Shown here piece after piece: positions 1 to 63,315 of a stretch of DNA of 64,000 bases. Position numbers and translations under genes: made by a program. The stretch's first letter is position 1, and each line of letters starts with the position of its first letter. The stretch comes from a virus (lineage: Duplodnaviria; Caudoviricetes), in the IMG/VR virus record IMGVR_UViG_2911420635_000004, positions 21,348 through 85,347 of that record. One strand, given 5' to 3'. A model generated the notes under the pieces. It was not told the origin of the DNA. It was given only the letters and a program-made list of their open reading frames with translations, and searched no databases.

Positions 1-207
1 ATGGAAGATGTCATTCACTGGGTTACAGAACACAAAGAGGAGAACCCTCCGAACAGGAAAGTCAGCCACAGCCACCCGGACCCGACTGCAGATGAAGCCA
101 TCAGTAATGTGATCCGGGAAGAAGGCAAGAAAAAACACAAGAAAAGAAAACGCCCGCGGATCGGTGTTTGGAGAGCGAAGGAGGCAAAGCCGGATGAGGG
201 AAAGTGA
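1..207 (+). CDS. Hypothetical phage protein, probably the 3' part of a gene starting before the window
   Basis: ORF at the window edge overlapping the VRR-NUC start; basic C-terminus. Confidence 0.5.
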   Translation: MEDVIHWVTEHKEENPPNRKVSHSHPDPTADEAISNVIREEGKKKHKKRKRPRIGVWRAKEAKPDEGK

Positions 208-613
208 AGTAGAAAAGCAGCTTGTAGCTGCGGTGAGGGCTGTCGGAGGACAGGCCCTCAAATTTACCAGTCAGAGCATGAATGGTGTGCCGGATCGTCT
301 GGTTCTGCTGCTCGGCGGCAAGTGTGCGTTTGTGGAGCTGAAAGCCCCTGGAAAGCAGATGCGCATCCTTCAGCGAAAGCGCAGACTGCAGCTGGAGACA
401 CTGGGCTTTCCGGTGTTCTGTGTTGACCGTTTGGAGCAGATCCGGCCTGCGGTGGACGCACTCCTGCACTGGACGCCGGGTGAGCCTATCCCACAGGGGA
501 TCGGGGCGAAAATCCCGGAGATGCCGGAAGTTACGCTGCCGCAGGGAGATACACAAAGCGAGGAGCCGGAAACACAGGCACAGGATGCCGGGGAGGAGGT
601 GATGCCGCTATGA
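194..613 (+). CDS. VRR-NUC domain nuclease
   Basis: MRESEVEK..GVPDRLVLL..FVELKAPG (PD-D/ExK VRR-NUC signature); ATG at 194 after GAGG. Confidence 0.9.
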   Translation: MRESEVEKQLVAAVRAVGGQALKFTSQSMNGVPDRLVLLLGGKCAFVELKAPGKQMRILQRKRRLQLETLGFPVFCVDRLEQIRPAVDALLHWTPGEPIPQGIGAKIPEMPEVTLPQGDTQSEEPETQAQDAGEEVMPL

Positions 614-1992
614 AGTTCATTCCACACGATTATCAGAGTTACTGCACCGAGTATATTAAAACGCACCCGACTGCAGCCCTTTTTCTGGATATGGGCTTGG
701 GTTAAGGAAAGACCGTCATAACCCTTTCTGCAATCAAAGACCTTATGCTTGAGACTTTCGAGGTTAACAAGGTTCTCATCATTGCACCGCTGCGTGTTGC
801 CCGTGACACATGGCCGGCAGAGATTGAAAAGTGGGATCACTTAAAAGGGCTGGACATTTCCATCATCGTTGGAGATGTCAAGACCCGGATCGCAGCAGTC
901 CACCACCCGGCGATGATCTACATCGTCAATCGGGAGAACATCAAGTGGCTGGTGGAGTATTACGAGAAAAATGGAATGCGCTGGGATTTTGGCATGGTTG
1001 TGATCGATGAGCTGTCATCGTTCAAGAACTATCAGTCCCAGCGTTTTAAGTTCCTGCGAAAAGTCCGCCCGTTTGTGAAGCGGTGGGTTGGTCTGACCGG
1101 CACACCTTCTTCCAACGGCCTTATGGATTTGTGGGCAGAGATTGGGATTCTGGATGGCGGGGAGCGCCTTGGAAAGTTTATCGGCCGCTACCGGGAAGCC
1201 TACTTTAAGGCTGGGTCGATGAACCCGGCAACAGGAATCGTGTTCCAGTATGTACCAAGACAGGGAGCAGAGGAGATGATCTACCAGCGGATCTCTGACA
1301 TCACGATTTCTATGAAGGCTCTGGATTATCTCAATATGCCGGATTGTGTACCTACAAGGTGCGAAGTCGAGATGAACACGCAGGAAAGGGAACTCTACGA
1401 TATGCTTCGGCAGGATCTTTTGATTCCGCTGAAAGACGGTGACATAGACGCTGCCAATGCTGCATCACTGACAGGGAAGCTGTTGCAGATGAGCAATGGC
1501 GCGGTCTATGACGAGAACGGCAAGGCGAGAGTCATTCACGACCACAAGCTGGAAGCTCTCGAAGACCTGATCGAAGCCGCCAACGGACAGCCGGTGATGG
1601 TAGCTTACTGGTTTAAGCATGACAGGGAGCGTATCATCAACCATCTGTCGAAGCTGAAGATCAAAGTCCGGGATATCAAGAGCAGTACCGACATCAAGGA
1701 TTGGAATGCTGGAAACATCCCGGTCGCCCTGATCCATCCTGCATCGGCCGGACATGGCCTGAACATCCAGCAGGGCGGACACATCCTGATCTGGTTTGGG
1801 CTGACCTGGTCTTTGGAGTTGTATCAGCAGACCAATGCCCGGCTTTGGCGGCAGGGACAGACCCATGTGGTGACCATTCACCACATCATCACGAAGAATA
1901 CCGTGGACGAGGATGTCATGGCGGCATTGGAGCAGAAGGACATGACACAGGAAAAGCTGATATCTGCCGTTAGAGCACGGCTGGAGGAATAG
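610..1992 (+). CDS. SNF2-family helicase with an in-frame TAA at 703-705 (recoded gene or pseudogene)
   Basis: ATG 610 overlaps the upstream stop. Reads MKFIPHDYQ..LFLDMGLG*GKTV, in frame with 745..1992, which carries IDELS, LTGTP and the helicase-C motif QQTNARLWRQGQ. Confidence 0.85.
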
Positions 1993-4229: not shown

Positions 4230-4319
4230 AGCGGATAAGAGTGCTGGGAGCGAAAGCTGCCCGGTATTTTTATCCGCTTTTTACATGTTATGCCGTCACG
4301 GATTCGGATTCCGGACGGC
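4230..4319 (+). promoter_or_regulatory. Structured leader: 22-bp hairpin with GAAA loop plus U-tract, then a second hairpin
   Basis: AGCGGATAAGAGTGCTGGGAGC-GAAA-GCT(G)CCCGGTATTTTTATCCGCT pairs fully using five G-U pairs; GCCGTC..GACGGC hairpin at 4292-4319; TGCTATACT extended -10 at 4192-4200. Confidence 0.6.
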
Positions 4320-4355
4320 TGTTTTTGTATCAGGAGAGAAGAGGTGAAACCCAGA

Positions 4356-5006
4356 ATGGGGAGAAAGAAAAGCAACGCACGGATTCTGCCGCGTGGCAGG
4401 AAGATCCATGTGAACAAGTACATCAACAAGCGTGGCTGCACCAAGCATAAAAGCGCCGCCACGCATAACCACAGCACCGAAAAGCAGCAGGAAAGCAGCC
4501 ACACAACTTATGACAGCTTCCCCGCTTACAACTGGCCGACGACCAGAATCCCGAAGCAGTATGAGATCTGGTTTGCAGAGCTTGGTAACCATTATGGCAC
4601 CTGTGTGCAGAGTGGGAACCGTCCGGTGCTGATCCTGACAAACGATATTGCGAACCGTTATTCGCAGACCTTCACAGTTATTCCGCTTACGAGCAAGATG
4701 AAAAAGCTCGACCTGCCAACACATATCGTGCTGACAGAAGCACATTGTGAGATGCTCAGAGCGGAACGACTGGAGGATTCCATTTTGCTGGTCGAGCAGA
4801 TCACAACGATCGACCAGTCGGCACTGTTTGGACGCCTTTGCAGGGTGATCTCTGCTGAGAAAAAGCAGGAGATTGAACAGGCTGTGGCAAGGCAATTTGA
4901 TATGCACAGTACTAAGAAAAACAAACAAAATACAGACGAAAATGCTGCGCGCGGCAGCAATGCCAATTACGGCAGCAACTCTGTACACAGCAGGAAGGAG
5001 GTCTAA
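4356..5006 (+). CDS. PemK/MazF-family endoribonuclease (no adjacent antitoxin)
   Basis: YEIWFAELG..VQSGNRPVLILTND..TVIPLTSK..LPTHIVL..VEQITTID motifs. Confidence 0.88.
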   Translation: MGRKKSNARILPRGRKIHVNKYINKRGCTKHKSAATHNHSTEKQQESSHTTYDSFPAYNWPTTRIPKQYEIWFAELGNHYGTCVQSGNRPVLILTNDIANRYSQTFTVIPLTSKMKKLDLPTHIVLTEAHCEMLRAERLEDSILLVEQITTIDQSALFGRLCRVISAEKKQEIEQAVARQFDMHSTKKNKQNTDENAARGSNANYGSNSVHSRKEV

Positions 5007-21150: not shown

Positions 21151-21357
21151 ATGGAACGCTACACTTACGAGGTCACCTTTACACGGCTGGATGGACAGCC
21201 GGATGAAATCCAGCAGCACACTAGCGAGGAGCTGGCAAGAGAATGCTTCCGGCTTTTTGATGAGCCGGACAGCGCAGAGATGTACAGCAAAATCGAACTT
21301 AGCCGCCATGACTGGGAGACAGGCATGGATGAAATTCTGGAAACGATGACATTCTGA
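21151..21357 (+). CDS. Small acidic hypothetical protein
   Basis: AAAGGGG RBS after a cassette promoter. Confidence 0.7.
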   Translation: MERYTYEVTFTRLDGQPDEIQQHTSEELARECFRLFDEPDSAEMYSKIELSRHDWETGMDEILETMTF

Positions 21358-52735: not shown

Positions 52736-52908
52736 AAAAAATAAGAGCCCTGCCGTAGCAAGGCTCTCATTAAGCGTTTTTGTTCGATTCAAAGAATCTA
52801 TTCGGCTTGTGGTTGTCGCATAACCCACGGGCAGGCTCCACAATCGGCTGAAACCGAACCAGTCCACTGCTTCAACGCCACGATAGCTGGTCAATGCCGC
52901 TATCCTCT
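52736..52908 (-). ncRNA. Candidate ~170-nt structured RNA upstream of PBECR4, ending in a terminator
   Basis: TTGTGT-16-TGT-extended TATAAT at 52915-52942; nested stems; GAGAGCCTTGC-TACG-GCAGGGCTCTT terminator before the RBS. Confidence 0.62.
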
Positions 52909-53180
52909 AAGTTCATTATAACACAAAATAACCAGAACACAAGTACTCTGGAATAATTTGTGGCGTGTGAACTATCACGCTCAGTATTAGTATATGCGGA
53001 ATCGGAAAAATCGCAACTGGAAAAAGAAACAAAATAAAAATAAAAATCGTGCAGATAAGACAATAATCTCCCAGATTATTCTCCGTCTTTCTGCGCCGAA
53101 ATTACTTGATAATATCACGAAACAGAGGGAATATGTGACTGCCCAAAGAGAAGAAAACGGGCAGGAAAGGAGCGAAAACT

Positions 53181-55541
53181 ATGAGTACTGGTACGGATTT
53201 CCTTGCAAATCTGCAGAAAAAGACTGTGAAGAATACAGTACAGCAGAAACAGCAGAAGAGAGTAAATGCATCTGCTGTGGATGTCTCGGTTTTACTGGAA
53301 GCCGCTCTTGGGAAAAAGAAACCTGTGGAAGCTGTGGCAGATGTTCGTCAAAGTACGGATGCTGCCACAGCTTCTTTTTTACCACTGGCTGATACGCACC
53401 AGGGCAGGTCTACTCAACAAAAACCCAAAAACGCATCAGATAAAAAACAGACACCCCAAAAATCAAAAGACATCGTGGACGCCGGTATCACAGCTCTTAT
53501 CCAGAAAGCTCTGGATGCCAAAAAGGTCATGGCAGAGCCGGACATTGTAGAACGGCTGCAGAGCAGTATGGAGAGTGAGTTTACGAAGCTCTTCACACCG
53601 GAAGAACCGCAGGATAACAAGTTCGTTTCGACGGCGACCTTCCGGGCTACCAAAAAGAAAGCCGGAACCCTTAATGTGGCAGCTTACATCCGCGTTTCTA
53701 CGGACATGAGCGACCAGGAGAACTCCTATGAAACGCAGGAAAAATACTTTAACCAGCTGATTGAAAATAATCCGGCATGGAATGCAGTCGGTGTGTACTC
53801 CGATTACGGCATCTCCGGCACTTCCAAGGAAAAGAGAACCGGATTCCGCCGACTGATGCGCCATTGTAAGGACGGGAAGATCGACCGCATTGTGTGCAAG
53901 TCCATATCACGATTTGCCCGAAACACGGCTGACTTTATGAGTGCACTGGATGTCCTGCATGACTGCGGGGTAACGATTCTGTTCGAGAAAGAAAATCTGG
54001 ATACGGCAGACCCGACCAGCGACTTCATCCTTACGACACTGGCAGCCATTGCACAGGAAGAAAGCCGCAGCATTTCCAGCAACATCCGGCTGGGGCAGAA
54101 GATGCGCTTTCCGAAGGGGGATGTTCCAAACAAGATCATGTACGGATACCGCTACAATGGGAAGATGGTTACCTCCGAGAGCGGATATGAGTATAAAGAT
54201 ATTGAGATCGTTGAGGAAGAAGCCAGGGTCGTCCGGCGCATTTTCCATGAAGTCGTGGAAGGGAAAGCCTATACGGAGATTGCAAGGGGACTGAACATGG
54301 ACAAGATTCCGGCTCCTGTCACCGACGCAGTGAGAGTAAGAAAGAAAAAATCCAAGAAAGGGCAGTTAAACAGTGATCTGCTGGATGGATGGACAGGCGG
54401 AAATATCACGCGGATCGTCCGTGCCGAGCGGTACATGGGTGCAGTCCTTATCCAGAAGAAGTTCACATCGGATTACCTGACACATGAAGTCCGGGACAAC
54501 AAAGGCGAAGTCCCTCAGTATTTTGTCCGGAACCATCATCCGGCAATCGTTGACGAGGACCTGTTTGAAAAGGCACAGGAAGTCGTAAAAGTAAACAGCG
54601 ATTTATATAACAGGACAAGATCCGGCAAGAAGCCGAGAGCGTTTTCCCAAAGACTAATCTGCGGGGAGTGCGGCCGCTTTTTCCATGTGACAAACGGAAA
54701 TGGGAACTATCCCATCTGGCGGTGCCCGACGAGCAGCCGGACGACAGGAAACCGTATCTGCCATGCAGAAAAAGTATACGAGGAACAGGTTGTCCGAGCC
54801 TTCCGTAAAGCAGTTCTGGAGCGGTTCCGGCTGACGCTTAAGCCCATCCATGACAACGTGGCTGTGGCAGACATCATGAGCGGCCGGTTCAAAGAGCAGT
54901 ATGACAACTTCACCCCGGAAGCAGATTCTTTTGTAAGCCAGATGCTTGCACGGCTGGAGAGCATTCAGAAGCTGGATTTTATGGAACGCGACCGTGCTTT
55001 TTATAAAAAGCAGATAGCGGCCGCACACACCAGTGTGGAAAGCACCAGTAAGAAGATCCGGCTCCTGAAAAGTCAGGTGGATGTGATGCAGACCCGTCTG
55101 GAACTTCTCGGTGACGAGATGATCGACCCTGCTTCTATTGAGGAGAAGAAAAAGCTCATTGAGAAACTGGAGTGTGATATTCAGAAGGACACGGACACTG
55201 AGCAGAAACTGACCGAACAGCTCGACTATATGGAAGACTACTGGGAAGAACTGGAGGGCGATTATGAACGAAGGGAAAAGGCAATCGGGTGGATGAAGAG
55301 CCTCCCGGCGGGGCGGGATGGTACGGTGGCCTTTCTGAATGAAGTGACCGAAGAACACTGCAAGGCATTCCTCCTCTCCATCACGATCCATTCACCGCTG
55401 AAGTTTACGGTCCACTGGTTCGATGACACCAAGACCGAGGTAGAGATGGATTCCAATATTGAAGATTACCGCAATACCGCAAGCTATTATGACGGGCATA
55501 CGATGCGCGACGGCAGCCAGCGGAAGAGGCATGTAAGATAA
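53181..55541 (+). CDS. Large serine recombinase 1
   Basis: AAYIRVST, YSDYGISGT, KSISRFARN, HHPAIV, Zn ribbon CGECG. Confidence 0.93.
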   Translation: MSTGTDFLANLQKKTVKNTVQQKQQKRVNASAVDVSVLLEAALGKKKPVEAVADVRQSTDAATASFLPLADTHQGRSTQQKPKNASDKKQTPQKSKDIVDAGITALIQKALDAKKVMAEPDIVERLQSSMESEFTKLFTPEEPQDNKFVSTATFRATKKKAGTLNVAAYIRVSTDMSDQENSYETQEKYFNQLIENNPAWNAVGVYSDYGISGTSKEKRTGFRRLMRHCKDGKIDRIVCKSISRFARNTADFMSALDVLHDCGVTILFEKENLDTADPTSDFILTTLAAIAQEESRSISSNIRLGQKMRFPKGDVPNKIMYGYRYNGKMVTSESGYEYKDIEIVEEEARVVRRIFHEVVEGKAYTEIARGLNMDKIPAPVTDAVRVRKKKSKKGQLNSDLLDGWTGGNITRIVRAERYMGAVLIQKKFTSDYLTHEVRDNKGEVPQYFVRNHHPAIVDEDLFEKAQEVVKVNSDLYNRTRSGKKPRAFSQRLICGECGRFFHVTNGNGNYPIWRCPTSSRTTGNRICHAEKVYEEQVVRAFRKAVLERFRLTLKPIHDNVAVADIMSGRFKEQYDNFTPEADSFVSQMLARLESIQKLDFMERDRAFYKKQIAAAHTSVESTSKKIRLLKSQVDVMQTRLELLGDEMIDPASIEEKKKLIEKLECDIQKDTDTEQKLTEQLDYMEDYWEELEGDYERREKAIGWMKSLPAGRDGTVAFLNEVTEEHCKAFLLSITIHSPLKFTVHWFDDTKTEVEMDSNIEDYRNTASYYDGHTMRDGSQRKRHVR

Positions 55542-55575
55542 GACCAGTTGCAAGGCTGGAAGAAAGGAGCAGATT

Positions 55576-57876
55576 ATGACAAGACAAAAAGTGGATGTGA
55601 TCCCCGCCAGTGTGCGCTCGGTACAGAACGGCGGGCAGCTGAAAAGCCAGACCAACATCCGTGTGGCGGCTTACTGCCGTGTTTCCACCGGCGATGAGAG
55701 CCAGCAGACTTCCTACACGACACAGAAAGCATTCTACAAAGACCTCATCACCCGGAAGCCCGGCTGGATCTTTGCCGGCATCTACGCGGATGAAGCAAAA
55801 TCTGGTACCAACCGGGAGCATCGAGAGGAATTCAACCGCATGATAAAAGATGCGATGGATGGAAAGCTGGACTACATCGTTACAAAGTCCATTTCCCGAT
55901 TCGCACGAAACACCATCGACTCCCTGACCTGTACCCGTGAGCTTCGGCAGCTGAAGCCGCCCGTGGGTATCTATTTCGAGAAAGAGAATATCGACACGCT
56001 GGATGCCAAAGGTGAGCTGATCCTGACGATCCTTTCTGCACTGGCACAAGATGAGAGCCGTTCCATTTCCGATAACATCCGCTGGAGCATTCAGAAGAAG
56101 TTCCAGTCTGGTGTCCCGCATATCAATCTGAAACGGATGCTGGGGTATGAGCTTGGGGCAAATAAGCAGTGGGTCATCGCGCCGGAGCAGGCAGAGATCA
56201 TCCGGTACATTTTTGACCGCTTCGTGAAAGGCCAGACGGCGAATAAGATCGCTCAGGAGCTGAACCAGATGGAAAAGTTCACGGTCAATGGAAAGAAGTG
56301 GAGTGCCAGCTCGATCCTGATCGTCCTGCGGAATGAGAAGTATGTGGGCGATATCGAGATGCAGAAGACCATCACCAAAGACTTCCTTACCCACCGTTCA
56401 AGCATTAACAAGGGCGAAGCACCCCGCTACTATGTGAAGAACCATCATGTGGGTATCATCGACCGTGTGACTTGGGACAAAGTGCAGACCATGCTGTTCG
56501 AGAAGCCGAGGGCAGACATGACGAAAGGCCCCGGCAAGAAAAAGGTAAAGAGCATTAAGGGTTCTCCGTTTGGAAACCTGCGCTGCGGTGCGATCCTGGA
56601 GAATGGGCCGGATGCCGGAAAACCCTGCGGGGAAGGATTCTTCCGTACAACCTACACGGGTGTGGCAAATGGTTACAGCGATGAGCGGAGTCTTAAGGCG
56701 ACTGGTGAGGATACCGGAGAGTATCTGGAAAAATACACTTATTCGTATCCCGTTTGGCGGTGCAAGCGTAAGGTCGGGGAGCGGGACGGTGAGCCGCCGA
56801 AGAACGGTTCTCCCGACCAGAAAGCGTATTGCCGGAGCAAGAAAGGCTGCATGTCGGATGAGGAAAAGGAAGCTGCAAACAAGCGCTGCCCCTCAGAACG
56901 CTACCATGAGTGTGCGCTGGAGCAGAGTTTCATGGAACTGCTCTACAGCATGAAGCGTGATTTTGAACAACACGGAGATGCCTCCATGATCGTGACGATG
57001 TTTGACAATGCCTATGAGCAGGCTGTCCGGCTGGCGAATAACAACAGCATCTCGGTGCAGAGGATGGCAACGGTGGAAAATCAGATCAAGGAGATGGAAG
57101 AACGCCTGCAGGATGCCATCAGTCATCAGGTGGCGGCGCTTCGGGAAGCTGCACTGGAACAGAATGTGGAACTGAATGAAGCCCTTTCCAACGGGGAGGT
57201 GACTATTGACGACATCGACCTGGACATCCGAAGCGGACTGACACCAGGAAGCATCGGAGTGAGCTTCTATGGGACAGAAACGGAGGAAGGCTCGGAAGCC
57301 CAGATTTATACAGAGCTTGTGAACGACCTGCAGGAACGGCTGAAAACACTCCAACAGGAACGGCAGACGATAGAGGAAGAACAGGGCGTGCTGGCGATCA
57401 TGAAAAAGAACTTTGAATATTTCCTTGCCTGCCTGAAAGAACTGCCGGATACCAATGCAGGCGGAATGCCGTTAAGAGTCAACGGCCTGGATGTACAGGG
57501 AAGTCTTCTGAGAGATGTAGACGGCAAGCCCATCGAGGGCCGGGTGTCTGCCGTGACAAGGGGCAGGCTCAAGCTGACTCCTGAGCGGATCGCAGAAGCA
57601 CCAGATATGCTCCACTTTGAAAAAGGCATCTACTGTGCTTTTGTTGAGAGCGGAGTACTGCAGGGGGATGTGGCAACCTATAAGACAAACTTCGGTGTGA
57701 CACTGACCTCAAAGGGCAACCGCAGAACGCTTGACAGCTTCATGGGCTATAAGCGGAGTGACATGGACGGCAATGTGGTCTATGTGGACGCTCCTTATAA
57801 GGTGTACGGATTCAGCATTCAGTACCGCAGATACCTGACAACTGCAGCGAAGCGCGAGAGGGAAGAAGCGGTGTGA
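55576..57876 (+). CDS. Large serine recombinase 2
   Basis: AAYCRVST, KSISRFARN, LRNEKYVGD. Confidence 0.93.
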   Translation: MTRQKVDVIPASVRSVQNGGQLKSQTNIRVAAYCRVSTGDESQQTSYTTQKAFYKDLITRKPGWIFAGIYADEAKSGTNREHREEFNRMIKDAMDGKLDYIVTKSISRFARNTIDSLTCTRELRQLKPPVGIYFEKENIDTLDAKGELILTILSALAQDESRSISDNIRWSIQKKFQSGVPHINLKRMLGYELGANKQWVIAPEQAEIIRYIFDRFVKGQTANKIAQELNQMEKFTVNGKKWSASSILIVLRNEKYVGDIEMQKTITKDFLTHRSSINKGEAPRYYVKNHHVGIIDRVTWDKVQTMLFEKPRADMTKGPGKKKVKSIKGSPFGNLRCGAILENGPDAGKPCGEGFFRTTYTGVANGYSDERSLKATGEDTGEYLEKYTYSYPVWRCKRKVGERDGEPPKNGSPDQKAYCRSKKGCMSDEEKEAANKRCPSERYHECALEQSFMELLYSMKRDFEQHGDASMIVTMFDNAYEQAVRLANNNSISVQRMATVENQIKEMEERLQDAISHQVAALREAALEQNVELNEALSNGEVTIDDIDLDIRSGLTPGSIGVSFYGTETEEGSEAQIYTELVNDLQERLKTLQQERQTIEEEQGVLAIMKKNFEYFLACLKELPDTNAGGMPLRVNGLDVQGSLLRDVDGKPIEGRVSAVTRGRLKLTPERIAEAPDMLHFEKGIYCAFVESGVLQGDVATYKTNFGVTLTSKGNRRTLDSFMGYKRSDMDGNVVYVDAPYKVYGFSIQYRRYLTTAAKREREEAV

Positions 57877-61482: not shown

Positions 61483-63315
61483 ATGATAAGCAGTGGAGCA
61501 GAGGCGGCAGACCGCAAGCAGAGAATCAGAGACAGATATAAAGGCGTGGATACTTCTGAGTTGGAAGTTATCCCGGCAAAAACTGTGGAGGGGCTTGGAG
61601 AAAGCACCTCTATCCGTCGTGTTGCCGCATATGTCCGTGTTTCCACTGATAATGATGAACAGACTTCTTCGTATGAACTTCAGAAAAATTATTACACGGA
61701 TTATATCAAGGCACAGCCGGGATGGGAATTCGTTGGAATCTATGATGATGAAGGCATCAGCGGTACATCGTTGGAGCATCGCAAAGGAATGCAGCAGCTG
61801 ATCGAGGACTGTAAGGCCGGAAAGATTGACCTGATCCTCACAAAGTCCATCGCCCGTTTCGCCAGAAACATTGTGGACTGTCTTTCCGTCATTGAAACAC
61901 TGAAAAATCTTGACCCGCCCGTGGGTGTAAAATTTGAAGCGGACAACATCTACACACTGGACAGTAACGGCCGCATGATCCTGACGATTTTGGCATCCGT
62001 GGCAGAGGAAGAATCTCATTCCAAGTCTATCATTATGAACTGGTCCATTGACCGCAGGTTCAGCCGTGGACTGTTCCTTACGCCGGCCCTGCTCGGATAT
62101 GACCAGGACGAGGATGGCAGCCTTGTGGTGAATCAGGACGAAGCACAGACGGTGAAGGTGATTTACTATTTGTACCTGAACGGATTTTCCTTCACCGAGA
62201 TTGCAGAGCTACTGACAGATTATGGCCGGAAGACAAAACTGGGGAACACGGAGTGGAATCCCGGCACTCTTGCAGGAGTCATTGCTAATGAACGCCATTG
62301 TGGGGATGTATTGGCGAGGAAGACCTTCACACCGAATTTCCTGACGCATAAATCAAAGAAAAACAATAACGACCGGACGCAGTACCGGCAGAGAGATCAT
62401 CATGAGGCAATCGTGTCCAGGGAAGTCTATAATGCGGCAAATCATCTGCGGGCATCCCGGAGTTATACAAAGAAAAATCGCCCACTGCCAGTCCTGAGTG
62501 TGGTGAATGATGGAATCTTACGCGGATATGTGCCTTTTGATAAGGACTGGACCGGCTTTTCGGCAGAAGAATACCGGGAAGCATCTGAAAGCGTTATGCG
62601 GGAAAAACAGCAGGATACGGTAGAAGTCATGAACCGTTTAGACCTCAGCGGATATGAAGTTGTGCGGGCACAGTATTTTGCTACTTTACAGAATCCGGCT
62701 ATGACGATCTCCAATGGCAAGCTGCGCTTTAATACAGCCTGCCTGAAAAAGTTTGAAGATGTGGAGTATGTAGAACTGCTCCTGAATTCGGTTGACCGCT
62801 GTATTGCCATTCGCCCATGCGAAAAGGATAATCCGAACGCGATCCGCTGGGGCAGGCTGAAAGAGGGACGCTGGTGCGCCAGTACACTCGGATGCCGCGG
62901 TCTGGCAAAAGCCCTTTTTGACATGATGGAATGGGAAGAAGGTTTGAAATACCGTTTCCGTGGGCAGCTCGTGGGACAGGACGATGACAAGCTGATGCTG
63001 TTTGAACTGGATGAGCCGGAAATGGTTAAAGTAGAAGAAATTATCCTGCCATCCAAGGAACAGGATGAAGAAGGAAAAACCGTCAAGCAGACGATCTATA
63101 TCTTCCCACCAGAATGGGCAGGTACTTTTGGAAAGCCGATCACAAGTATTGCACAGGTCGGGATTTTACAGCAGGAGCATTACTCTGGAAACTGGGATGT
63201 ACTTCGGCCGGCAGCAGAGATAGAAGAAATGAACACTTTTACCGCAGATGGCCTGAATGCTCTGCTCCATGAAGCGGAAAAAATAATGGAAGGATGGACT
63301 GACACAGATGAATGA
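61483..63315 (+). CDS. Large serine recombinase 3
   Basis: AAYVRVST, YDDEGISGT, KSIARFARN, NERHCGD. Confidence 0.92.
   Translation: MISSGAEAADRKQRIRDRYKGVDTSELEVIPAKTVEGLGESTSIRRVAAYVRVSTDNDEQTSSYELQKNYYTDYIKAQPGWEFVGIYDDEGISGTSLEHRKGMQQLIEDCKAGKIDLILTKSIARFARNIVDCLSVIETLKNLDPPVGVKFEADNIYTLDSNGRMILTILASVAEEESHSKSIIMNWSIDRRFSRGLFLTPALLGYDQDEDGSLVVNQDEAQTVKVIYYLYLNGFSFTEIAELLTDYGRKTKLGNTEWNPGTLAGVIANERHCGDVLARKTFTPNFLTHKSKKNNNDRTQYRQRDHHEAIVSREVYNAANHLRASRSYTKKNRPLPVLSVVNDGILRGYVPFDKDWTGFSAEEYREASESVMREKQQDTVEVMNRLDLSGYEVVRAQYFATLQNPAMTISNGKLRFNTACLKKFEDVEYVELLLNSVDRCIAIRPCEKDNPNAIRWGRLKEGRWCASTLGCRGLAKALFDMMEWEEGLKYRFRGQLVGQDDDKLMLFELDEPEMVKVEEIILPSKEQDEEGKTVKQTIYIFPPEWAGTFGKPITSIAQVGILQQEHYSGNWDVLRPAAEIEEMNTFTADGLNALLHEAEKIMEGWTDTDE

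Follow-up and report, generated by a model that had tools for sequence, protein, structure and literature searches.

Translational bypassing, in which the ribosome skips part of a message, is to our knowledge documented for essentially one well-studied bacterial-virus case, gene 60 of phage T4, and for one yeast mitochondrial lineage; short hops over a stop codon (stop-hops) have, as far as we know, been seen only in engineered constructs. Bypassing in gene 60 was reportedly described by Huang and colleagues in 1988, and the byp elements of Magnusiomyces capitatus mitochondria are said to go back to Lang and colleagues in 2014 and Nosek and colleagues in 2015. Here we describe an SNF2 helicase gene of a gut tailed-phage provirus that is interrupted, within its Walker A codons, by a stop codon and one further triplet. 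The gene lies in a stretch of 64,000 nucleotides (nt), called the window below, which is part of an 85-kb IMG/VR provirus record (IMGVR_UViG_2911420635_000004, positions 21,348 to 85,347). We consider it probable that the six bases, TAAGGA at 703-708, are a non-coding gap that would be crossed by a short stop-hop to make full-length helicase, and that they are a relic of an HNH homing cassette.

The likeness to T4 gene 60 and its nuclease MobA extends to several features. In both, a Gly take-off codon stands directly before a stop and the landing triplet is Gly; the interruption falls in a conserved motif of a phage DNA-metabolism gene; and the gap, in relatives of the window, ends a stretch brought with a free-standing HNH-type nuclease and outlasts loss of that nuclease. 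With the insert in place, self-cleavage by MobA is blocked in T4 (Manning and Atkins, bioRxiv 10.1101/2022.08.31.505936). There are also clear differences: the gap is 6 nt here (1-9 nt in relatives) and 50 nt in T4; here there is no conserved take-off stem-loop and no nascent-peptide signal was identified; the codons of the window are synonymous, not identical; and the target is an SNF2 helicase and the nuclease an HNH_3 protein.

The other close comparison is with the synthetic stop-hops made in E. coli (Weiss, Dunn, Atkins and Gesteland 1987, reviewed in PMC5009743). In these, as in the hop proposed here, nine nt specify one amino acid, matched or synonymous codons flank the stop and an elaborate signal is unnecessary; hops of +5 and +6 have been described. 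Those sites were engineered and of low efficiency, whereas the present one is natural, conserved and under selection. A 2016 review knew of no natural in-frame stop-hop (PMC5009743), and our literature search on stop-hopping in phage helicases found no report. We would class the helicase gap as a hitherto undescribed, short form of bypassing of the gene-60 type, linked to an HNH homing cassette; comparison of the alleles described below speaks well for bypassing.

In the window, the helicase start codon (ATG 610) overlaps the stop of the upstream gene (ATGA, 610-613), and the gene is laid out as follows.

610 to 702, plus strand: 5' segment of the helicase gene, 31 codons ending in DMGLG (last codons GAT ATG GGC TTG GGT)
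700 to 702, plus strand: proposed take-off codon GGT (Gly), read directly from the sequence
703 to 708, plus strand: 6-nt coding gap, the stop TAA (703-705) and the landing triplet GGA (706-708), read directly from the sequence
709 to 1992, plus strand: 3' segment of the helicase gene, KTVITL... to TAG, with SNF2 and Helicase_C domains (Pfam)

After the gap the gene continues AAG ACC GTC, and the frame stays open to TAG 1990-1992 (428 codons counted from GGA). Walker A (motif I, G-L-G-K-T) is not contiguous in the DNA of the window; it becomes so only when 703-708 are skipped. The closest continuous homologue, P0001 (96% identical), reads ...ALFLDMGLGKTVITL and its Walker A stretch, ...LFLDMGLGKTVITL..., is uninterrupted; the lesion is therefore exactly 6 extra nt in the Walker A codons. 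A preliminary description of this DNA had given the same layout (ATG 610, LFLDMGLG-TAA-G-KTV, an intact downstream frame) and had called the lesion a stop plus a Gly codon instead of a point nonsense mutation. Every coordinate proved correct on checking, and the comparison with P0001 agrees on the nature of the lesion.

The gene's Pfam matches are SNF2-rel_dom (PF00176, E=4.8e-15) and Helicase_C (PF00271, E=1.8e-5), both above the cut-offs, and its PHROG match is phrog_62 'DNA helicase' (E=6e-157). The closest solved structure is 1z63, the Sulfolobus SNF2/Rad54 core, whose DDMGLGKT aligns with DMGLGKT of P0001.

The interruption is not private to the window. Protein and DNA searches found a 31-codon open reading frame (ORF), a stop and the rest of the gene to be an architecture common to many independent assemblies. 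The interruption goes far beyond chance. Identical copies of the GGT-TAA-GGA junction itself turn up in IMG/VR, ENA and Logan contigs, dozens of them independent, and in genomes of isolates as well; the insert is therefore real. The closest viral loci (L011-L059; 49 in number, each at least 91% identical) comprise 41 interrupted, 5 continuous and 1 truncated one; in the other 2, unrelated DNA lies left of the stop. Prophage loci in species-representative bacterial genomes are interrupted in 26 of 80 cases. An unbiased set gave 55 interrupted and 89 continuous alleles (144 in all), and pooling every fetched locus gave 207 distinct alleles, 108 of them interrupted. The first wide DNA pattern scan (among the 118 matches listed, 67 were chance ones) serves, through its helicase matches, as a catalogue of junction types, not of frequencies.

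Cultured bacteria carry the interruption as well. Faecalibacterium intestinale CLA-AA-H281 has a 99% identical locus (L291) with the same GGT TAA GGA, and interrupted alleles occur in cultured strains of Clostridium fessum (SNUG30386), Ruminococcus sp. 5_1_39BFAA, Succiniclasticum ruminis, Heliorestis acidaminivorans, Anaerobacillus alkalilacustris and Phosphitispora. A megablast search of the region against GenBank phages returned 0 matches; a GenBank phage of the proposed order Heliusvirales (PV036419.1) reads GGT TGA GC AAG at the site, and its helicase is annotated as two coding sequences. The preliminary description had looked to homologues for GGN-stop-GGN at this position, and there the interruption does recur.

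The junctions are varied. The 108 interrupted alleles comprise 41 junction types, with gaps of 1, 4, 5, 6, 7, 8 or 9 nt, and deletion of the gap restores D-M-G-L-G-K-T/S in every one. A stop codon directly follows the take-off codon at 100 of the 108 loci, against 3/64 expected for a random triplet. The final gap triplet is GGN in most types and AGC, AGT or GAC in others. In the unbiased set, all 53 alleles with the gap after the second Gly take off from GGT or GGC; GGA and GGG, which occupy this position in 36 of 89 continuous alleles, are used by none. Two further alleles of that set have the gap after the first Gly of G-L-G, a placement known in two types (ATG GGT TAG GT TTG GGA and ATG GGT TAG GA CTC GGA). 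In L221 (minus strand, about 1887-1919) the gap follows the Leu codon, with matched codons on either side (CTA TGA A CTA GGG AAA). Take-off and landing codons are synonymous, not identical, in the window (GGT/GGA); relatives pair GGC/GGC, GGT/GGT, CTA/CTA, GGY/AGC and GGY/GAC. TAA, TGA and TAG interchange, the third positions of the flanking Gly codons vary, and the changes within the gap look like those of a constrained signal.

Eight interrupted alleles lack the stop and have CGG, AGG, CCA or TGG after the take-off codon: L215 and L233 (GGT TGGC AAR), L253, L219, L235 and L271 (GGY CCAGC AAR), L369 (GGT CGGGC) and L245 (GGC AGGGC). Their genes are intact and the pairs that were measured (TGGC, CCAGC) are under selection. 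An HNH gene is still present in L215, L233 and L369.

Two further systems share parts of this picture. The byp elements of Magnusiomyces are likewise short mobile inserts that break many frames and are skipped in translation, and their take-off and landing pairs are often matched at two of three positions. They differ in being 27-55 nt long and in occupying 81 sites in many genes of one organelle genome, with an unassigned codon in the A site; the helicase gap concerns one site in one gene family of many phages, with a true stop codon. The +1 frameshift of prfB, the gene for RF2 (CUU UGA C), also involves a shifty stop, a slow A-site stop and a P-site transfer RNA (tRNA) that re-pairs downstream, and our 1-nt relative (GGG T AAR) is formally of this type. 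In prfB, however, the re-pairing codon overlaps the original one and an upstream Shine-Dalgarno sequence is essential, whereas the move in the window would be 6 nt within the same frame.

Both halves of the gene are under selection. Between interrupted alleles, the 3' part has a synonymous divergence (dS) of 0.9-1.3 and a ratio of nonsynonymous to synonymous divergence (dN/dS) of 0.03-0.05; over the 29 codons before the motif, dS is 0.5-1.45 and dN 0.03-0.06. The two halves have thus been diverging side by side, strongly constrained, over a long period in which the gap was retained, and purifying selection extends to the 5' part, which the preliminary description had singled out for this comparison. 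Types with unsaturated pairs (TGAGC, CCAGC, TGAC) and the TGGC pair gave dN/dS of 0.05-0.25. More than 100 interrupted alleles contain no secondary stop or frameshift. A dead or dying gene, in which an inactivating scar (a duplication or a mobile-element footprint) has ended helicase production, would explain why a stop stands within Walker A, where it would abolish the standard product; and the gap does resemble a diverged Leu-Gly duplicate (TTG GGT / TAA GGA). Yet such strong purifying selection on both halves (dN/dS 0.03-0.06) at dS ~1, with no further lesions, is not what a dead gene would show. Moreover, the helicase is the only SNF2 gene of the 85-kb record, and the Heliusvirales gut-phage lineage, to which the related GenBank phage belongs, has the helicase among its nine marker genes (PMC11283538). 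We find a dead gene scarcely credible, and the observation is confirmed as neither artefact nor decay.

How, then, would the helicase be made? In the stop-hop that we propose, GGU 700-702 would occupy the P site and UAA the A site, where decoding would be slow. The peptidyl-tRNA-Gly (probably with a GCC anticodon, reading GGU by a wobble pair) would detach from GGU, the messenger RNA would slide by 6 nt, and the tRNA would re-pair with GGA 706-708 through the first two positions. AAG 709-711 would be decoded next, giving DMGLGKT, and ribosomes that terminate at UAA would release a 31-residue peptide. This route, with take-off at GGT, TAA skipped and landing on GGA, is the one that the preliminary description had put forward, and comparison strongly supports it through the gaps in all frames and the selection on both halves. 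Frameshifting or readthrough would put SKT or DKT in place of GKT in the types TAGC, TGAC, TGAGC, CCAGC and TGAGAGC, and all C-parts of these five types that were recovered to the end are open for 416-436 codons. Bypassing is favoured over readthrough, frameshifting and decay chiefly because no route but a precise hop yields a functional Walker A in every type.

Several points weigh against this reading. As the preliminary description had cautioned, GGU and GGA are only partially matched: of the three positions of GGA, tRNA-Gly(GCC) would pair with two, and the landing triplet of some relatives is AGC, AGT or GAC. It had also likened the following element to the stem of gene 60.

699 to 724, plus strand: 6-bp stem of GGGTTA (699-704) and TAACCC (719-724), present in the window and not a conserved element

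Both arms do exist in the window, but the stem is not kept in relatives. In a set of 18 diverse 6-nt alleles, changes in the 3' arm go uncompensated, even in close relatives (TTACAC or TCACAT in L020, L017, L022 and L031), and alifold on 18 such alleles gave no consensus structure (energy -4.7, no pairing at the site). The efficiency of the hop may be low, because no conserved stimulatory RNA structure was found. Furthermore, the allele counts given above and below are not phylogenetically independent, and a search of the whole provirus of the window for an HNH_3 gene found none. Finally, for the in-frame 6-nt type taken by itself, readthrough would give DMGLG-X-GKT, a product still ending in G-X-G-K-T.

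Readthrough, where TAA is read by a near-cognate tRNA and the helicase gains two residues, would thus serve the window, where the gap is in frame. It would fail the relatives with 1-, 4-, 5-, 7- and 8-nt gaps, which are out of frame; one of these (L038, 5 nt) has a C-part only dS 0.08 from that of a 6-nt allele (L036). No 6-nt allele has exchanged its stop for a sense codon, though the same protein would result; all three stop codons are used; and a search of the window for tRNA genes, and hence for a suppressor tRNA, found none. We hold readthrough to be unlikely.

Could the six bases be removed before translation, whether through excision or editing of RNA or through rearrangement of the replicating phage's DNA? 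The site is indeed also a DNA recombination junction in four relatives (L004, L015, L039 and L297). However, 1-9 nt is too short for any known self-splicing intron, Rfam has no match at the gap site, and transcriptional slippage would lack a homopolymer to act on. A stop that almost always follows the take-off codon, and a last triplet that resembles Gly, belong to ribosomal and not to RNA-processing events, and we judge removal before translation to be very unlikely. Two other candidates were rejected. Re-initiation after the stop would have Met46 as its first start codon, and a product begun there would be without the Walker A lysine; an intein is excluded by the in-frame stop.

One comparison of sister loci bears on the origin of the gap. 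L161 (GGT TGA GGT) is interrupted, and the sisters among which it is nested are continuous. Between its upstream endonuclease gene and its helicase lies an HNH_3 ORF of 170 amino acids (E=1.9e-10), which its sisters L158 and L160 are without. In the alignment of L161 with these two, the flanks are ~95% identical on both sides; the inserted block holds the HNH gene, a helicase 5' segment that has diverged markedly and, at the block end, the 6-nt gap, and near-identity resumes right after the gap. The alignment shows the HNH gene, the recoded 5' segment and the gap as what would be a joint arrival in L161. HNH homologues (55-64% identical) stand in the same place in L333, L335, L215, L233, L369, L178, L209, L261 and L280; Pfam confirms HNH_3 in L333, L215 and L369 besides L161 (E range 2e-10 to 3e-12). 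Loci with an HNH gene directly upstream of the helicase number 10 among the interrupted and 0 among the ~99 continuous ones (4 of 55 versus 0 of 89 in the unbiased subset, p about 0.02). The gene is missing from 98 of the 108 interrupted loci, and within single lineages some 7-nt alleles have it and others do not (L333 versus L332).

The window shares a 5' signature with other interrupted alleles.

596 to 627, plus strand: cassette 5' signature, GAGGTGATGCC-NN-ATG AAG TTC ATT CCA CAC (N-terminus MKFIPH), shared with interrupted alleles

MKFIPH begins the helicase in 83 of 107 interrupted but only 3 of 99 continuous alleles, and the upstream ..GGTGATGCC.. is likewise typical of interrupted alleles; together these markers span lineages whose helicases are only 50-60% identical. 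In HNH-bearing loci the signature stretch encodes the nuclease C-terminus (..MPNEVHST and its stop), overlapping the helicase start. The markers are accounted for by this overlap, because the helicase begins within the last codons of the nuclease gene.

These comparisons make the gap most likely the right-hand end of an HNH_3 homing-endonuclease cassette, which would insert between the upstream endonuclease gene and the helicase and rewrite the first 31 codons of the latter. For the window, the cassette origin draws on the shared 5' signature and on relatives, because its own HNH gene is absent; the simplest reading is a cassette whose nuclease gene would have been deleted later, leaving the 5' signature and the gap. 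The preliminary description had listed an intron scar among its alternatives. A cassette end does resemble a scar of a mobile element, but this one appears to be decoded through, and an intron gains nothing from Rfam at the site. A tandem duplication of Leu-Gly codons was also tried; it fits some alleles (L161 with one change) and leaves the HNH linkage and the 5' signature unaccounted for.

By analogy with T4 MobA and gene 60, the gap would break the DNA target of the nuclease in the P-loop codons and leave the protein unchanged. Alternatively, the hop may be real and the gap kept mainly for a low or regulated dose of helicase, as the preliminary description had inferred, not for protection from the nuclease. 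In most lineages the gap has outlived the nuclease gene, as the 98 loci without HNH attest, and it persists over dS ~1, both of which suit a role in dosage. Nothing ties it to a regulatory signal, however, and no structure is conserved, and the strict HNH link and the cassette-like co-transfer explain the origin without regulation. We regard dosage as a possible but doubtful main role; the two roles are not exclusive.

More broadly, we lean towards the view that phages commonly rely on short hops (1-9 nt) over a stop as a natural, heritable mode of decoding, and that the HNH cassette spread the P-loop gap. If so, the gap would be a feature of SNF2 helicase genes in prophages of Clostridia, Negativicutes and Bacilli, in about one-third of alleles, and these would be the first natural stop-hops. 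Ribosomes would then be able to bypass a few bases without an elaborate signal and efficiently enough for phage replication. A natural site that is abundant and evolutionarily stable, exists in dozens of variants and occurs in cultured gut bacteria would open questions: which features allow a slide of a few bases, how efficient it is, and how far homing nucleases drive its spread. There is also a consequence for annotation. Gene callers split or mis-start these helicases, as 31- and 415-residue ORFs or with chimeric N-termini, which affects marker-gene surveys of a very common group of human-gut phages.

A case in point is the very abundant 7-nt (TGAGAGC) lineage (loci L005-L007, proteins P0039-P0120), to which gene callers give a false N-terminus, MSISNLIQSQDYFWIWASAESKTV...; this is the +1 frame over the true 5' segment, and it masks Walker A in protein databases.

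The gene before the helicase is itself a nuclease gene.

164 to 613, plus strand: upstream endonuclease gene, 149 amino acids, VRR-NUC-like (phrog_93 'endonuclease', E=2.8e-22)

Its final codons (..EEVMPL and the stop) overlap the helicase start, and it has no match in Pfam. Homologues precede the helicase in 186 of the 207 loci. A search across the window for other genes broken in the same manner found ordinary gene junctions only.

Elsewhere in the window, a PemK/MazF-like toxin domain (E=1.3e-20) is encoded at 4290-5006 on the plus strand, with an N-terminal extension of ~88 residues. This gene stands in the replication module directly before a D5-type primase, a position conserved in relatives. 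At the prophage's lysis/lysogeny end, Rfam identifies a drum RNA (RF02958; 91.9 bits, E=3e-16) at 52769-52880 on the minus strand. The right end of the provirus has a cluster of three genes for large serine recombinases (ORFs of 800, 779 and 618 amino acids, with the Resolvase domain).

about 53139 to 55538: serine recombinase gene, Resolvase domain
55537 to 57873: serine recombinase gene, Resolvase domain
about 61621 to 62046: serine recombinase gene, Resolvase domain

In some relatives the left side of the gap abuts unrelated DNA, so that the gap is also a DNA recombination junction. Such joins occur in L004, L015, L039 (whose record has a second partial copy joined in this way) and L297, and the junction takes the form ...CTAAC-N9-TRA GGN AAR in five places. 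The junctions with foreign DNA are the following.

L004, 545 to 640: foreign-DNA junction
L015, 2290 to 2510: foreign-DNA junction
L039, 2290 to 2510: foreign-DNA junction
L297: foreign-DNA junction
L168, 9400 to 9660, minus strand: foreign-DNA junction

A search of these records for the helicase 5' segment found it absent, and one copy of the junction retains only 75 nt of helicase. Breaks made by a nuclease at this site may account for such junctions. The idea that a large serine recombinase has its attachment site here found no support: the reciprocal junction was present in 0 of 73 loci fetched through the upstream gene, and the N-terminal segment was likewise not found in the foreign-junction records.

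The adjoining ~190 nt are conserved and resemble a small RNA gene, with a TTGCAA-17-TATAAT promoter, hairpins and a terminator (fold z = -4.35); the idea that they are the 3' end of a group II intron had no support from Rfam. Further upstream lie defence genes (HEPN_LA2681, Thoeris ThsA/ThsB, PARG and an AbiE-like ATPase), and a large serine recombinase is encoded 13-18 kb upstream of the junctions. The record of L015 (L093/L094) is a mosaic: after the 5'-truncated helicase come a serine recombinase, also 5'-truncated, then another PARG gene and a TIR gene; DNA polymerase A is encountered only 17 kb downstream, after the TIR gene.

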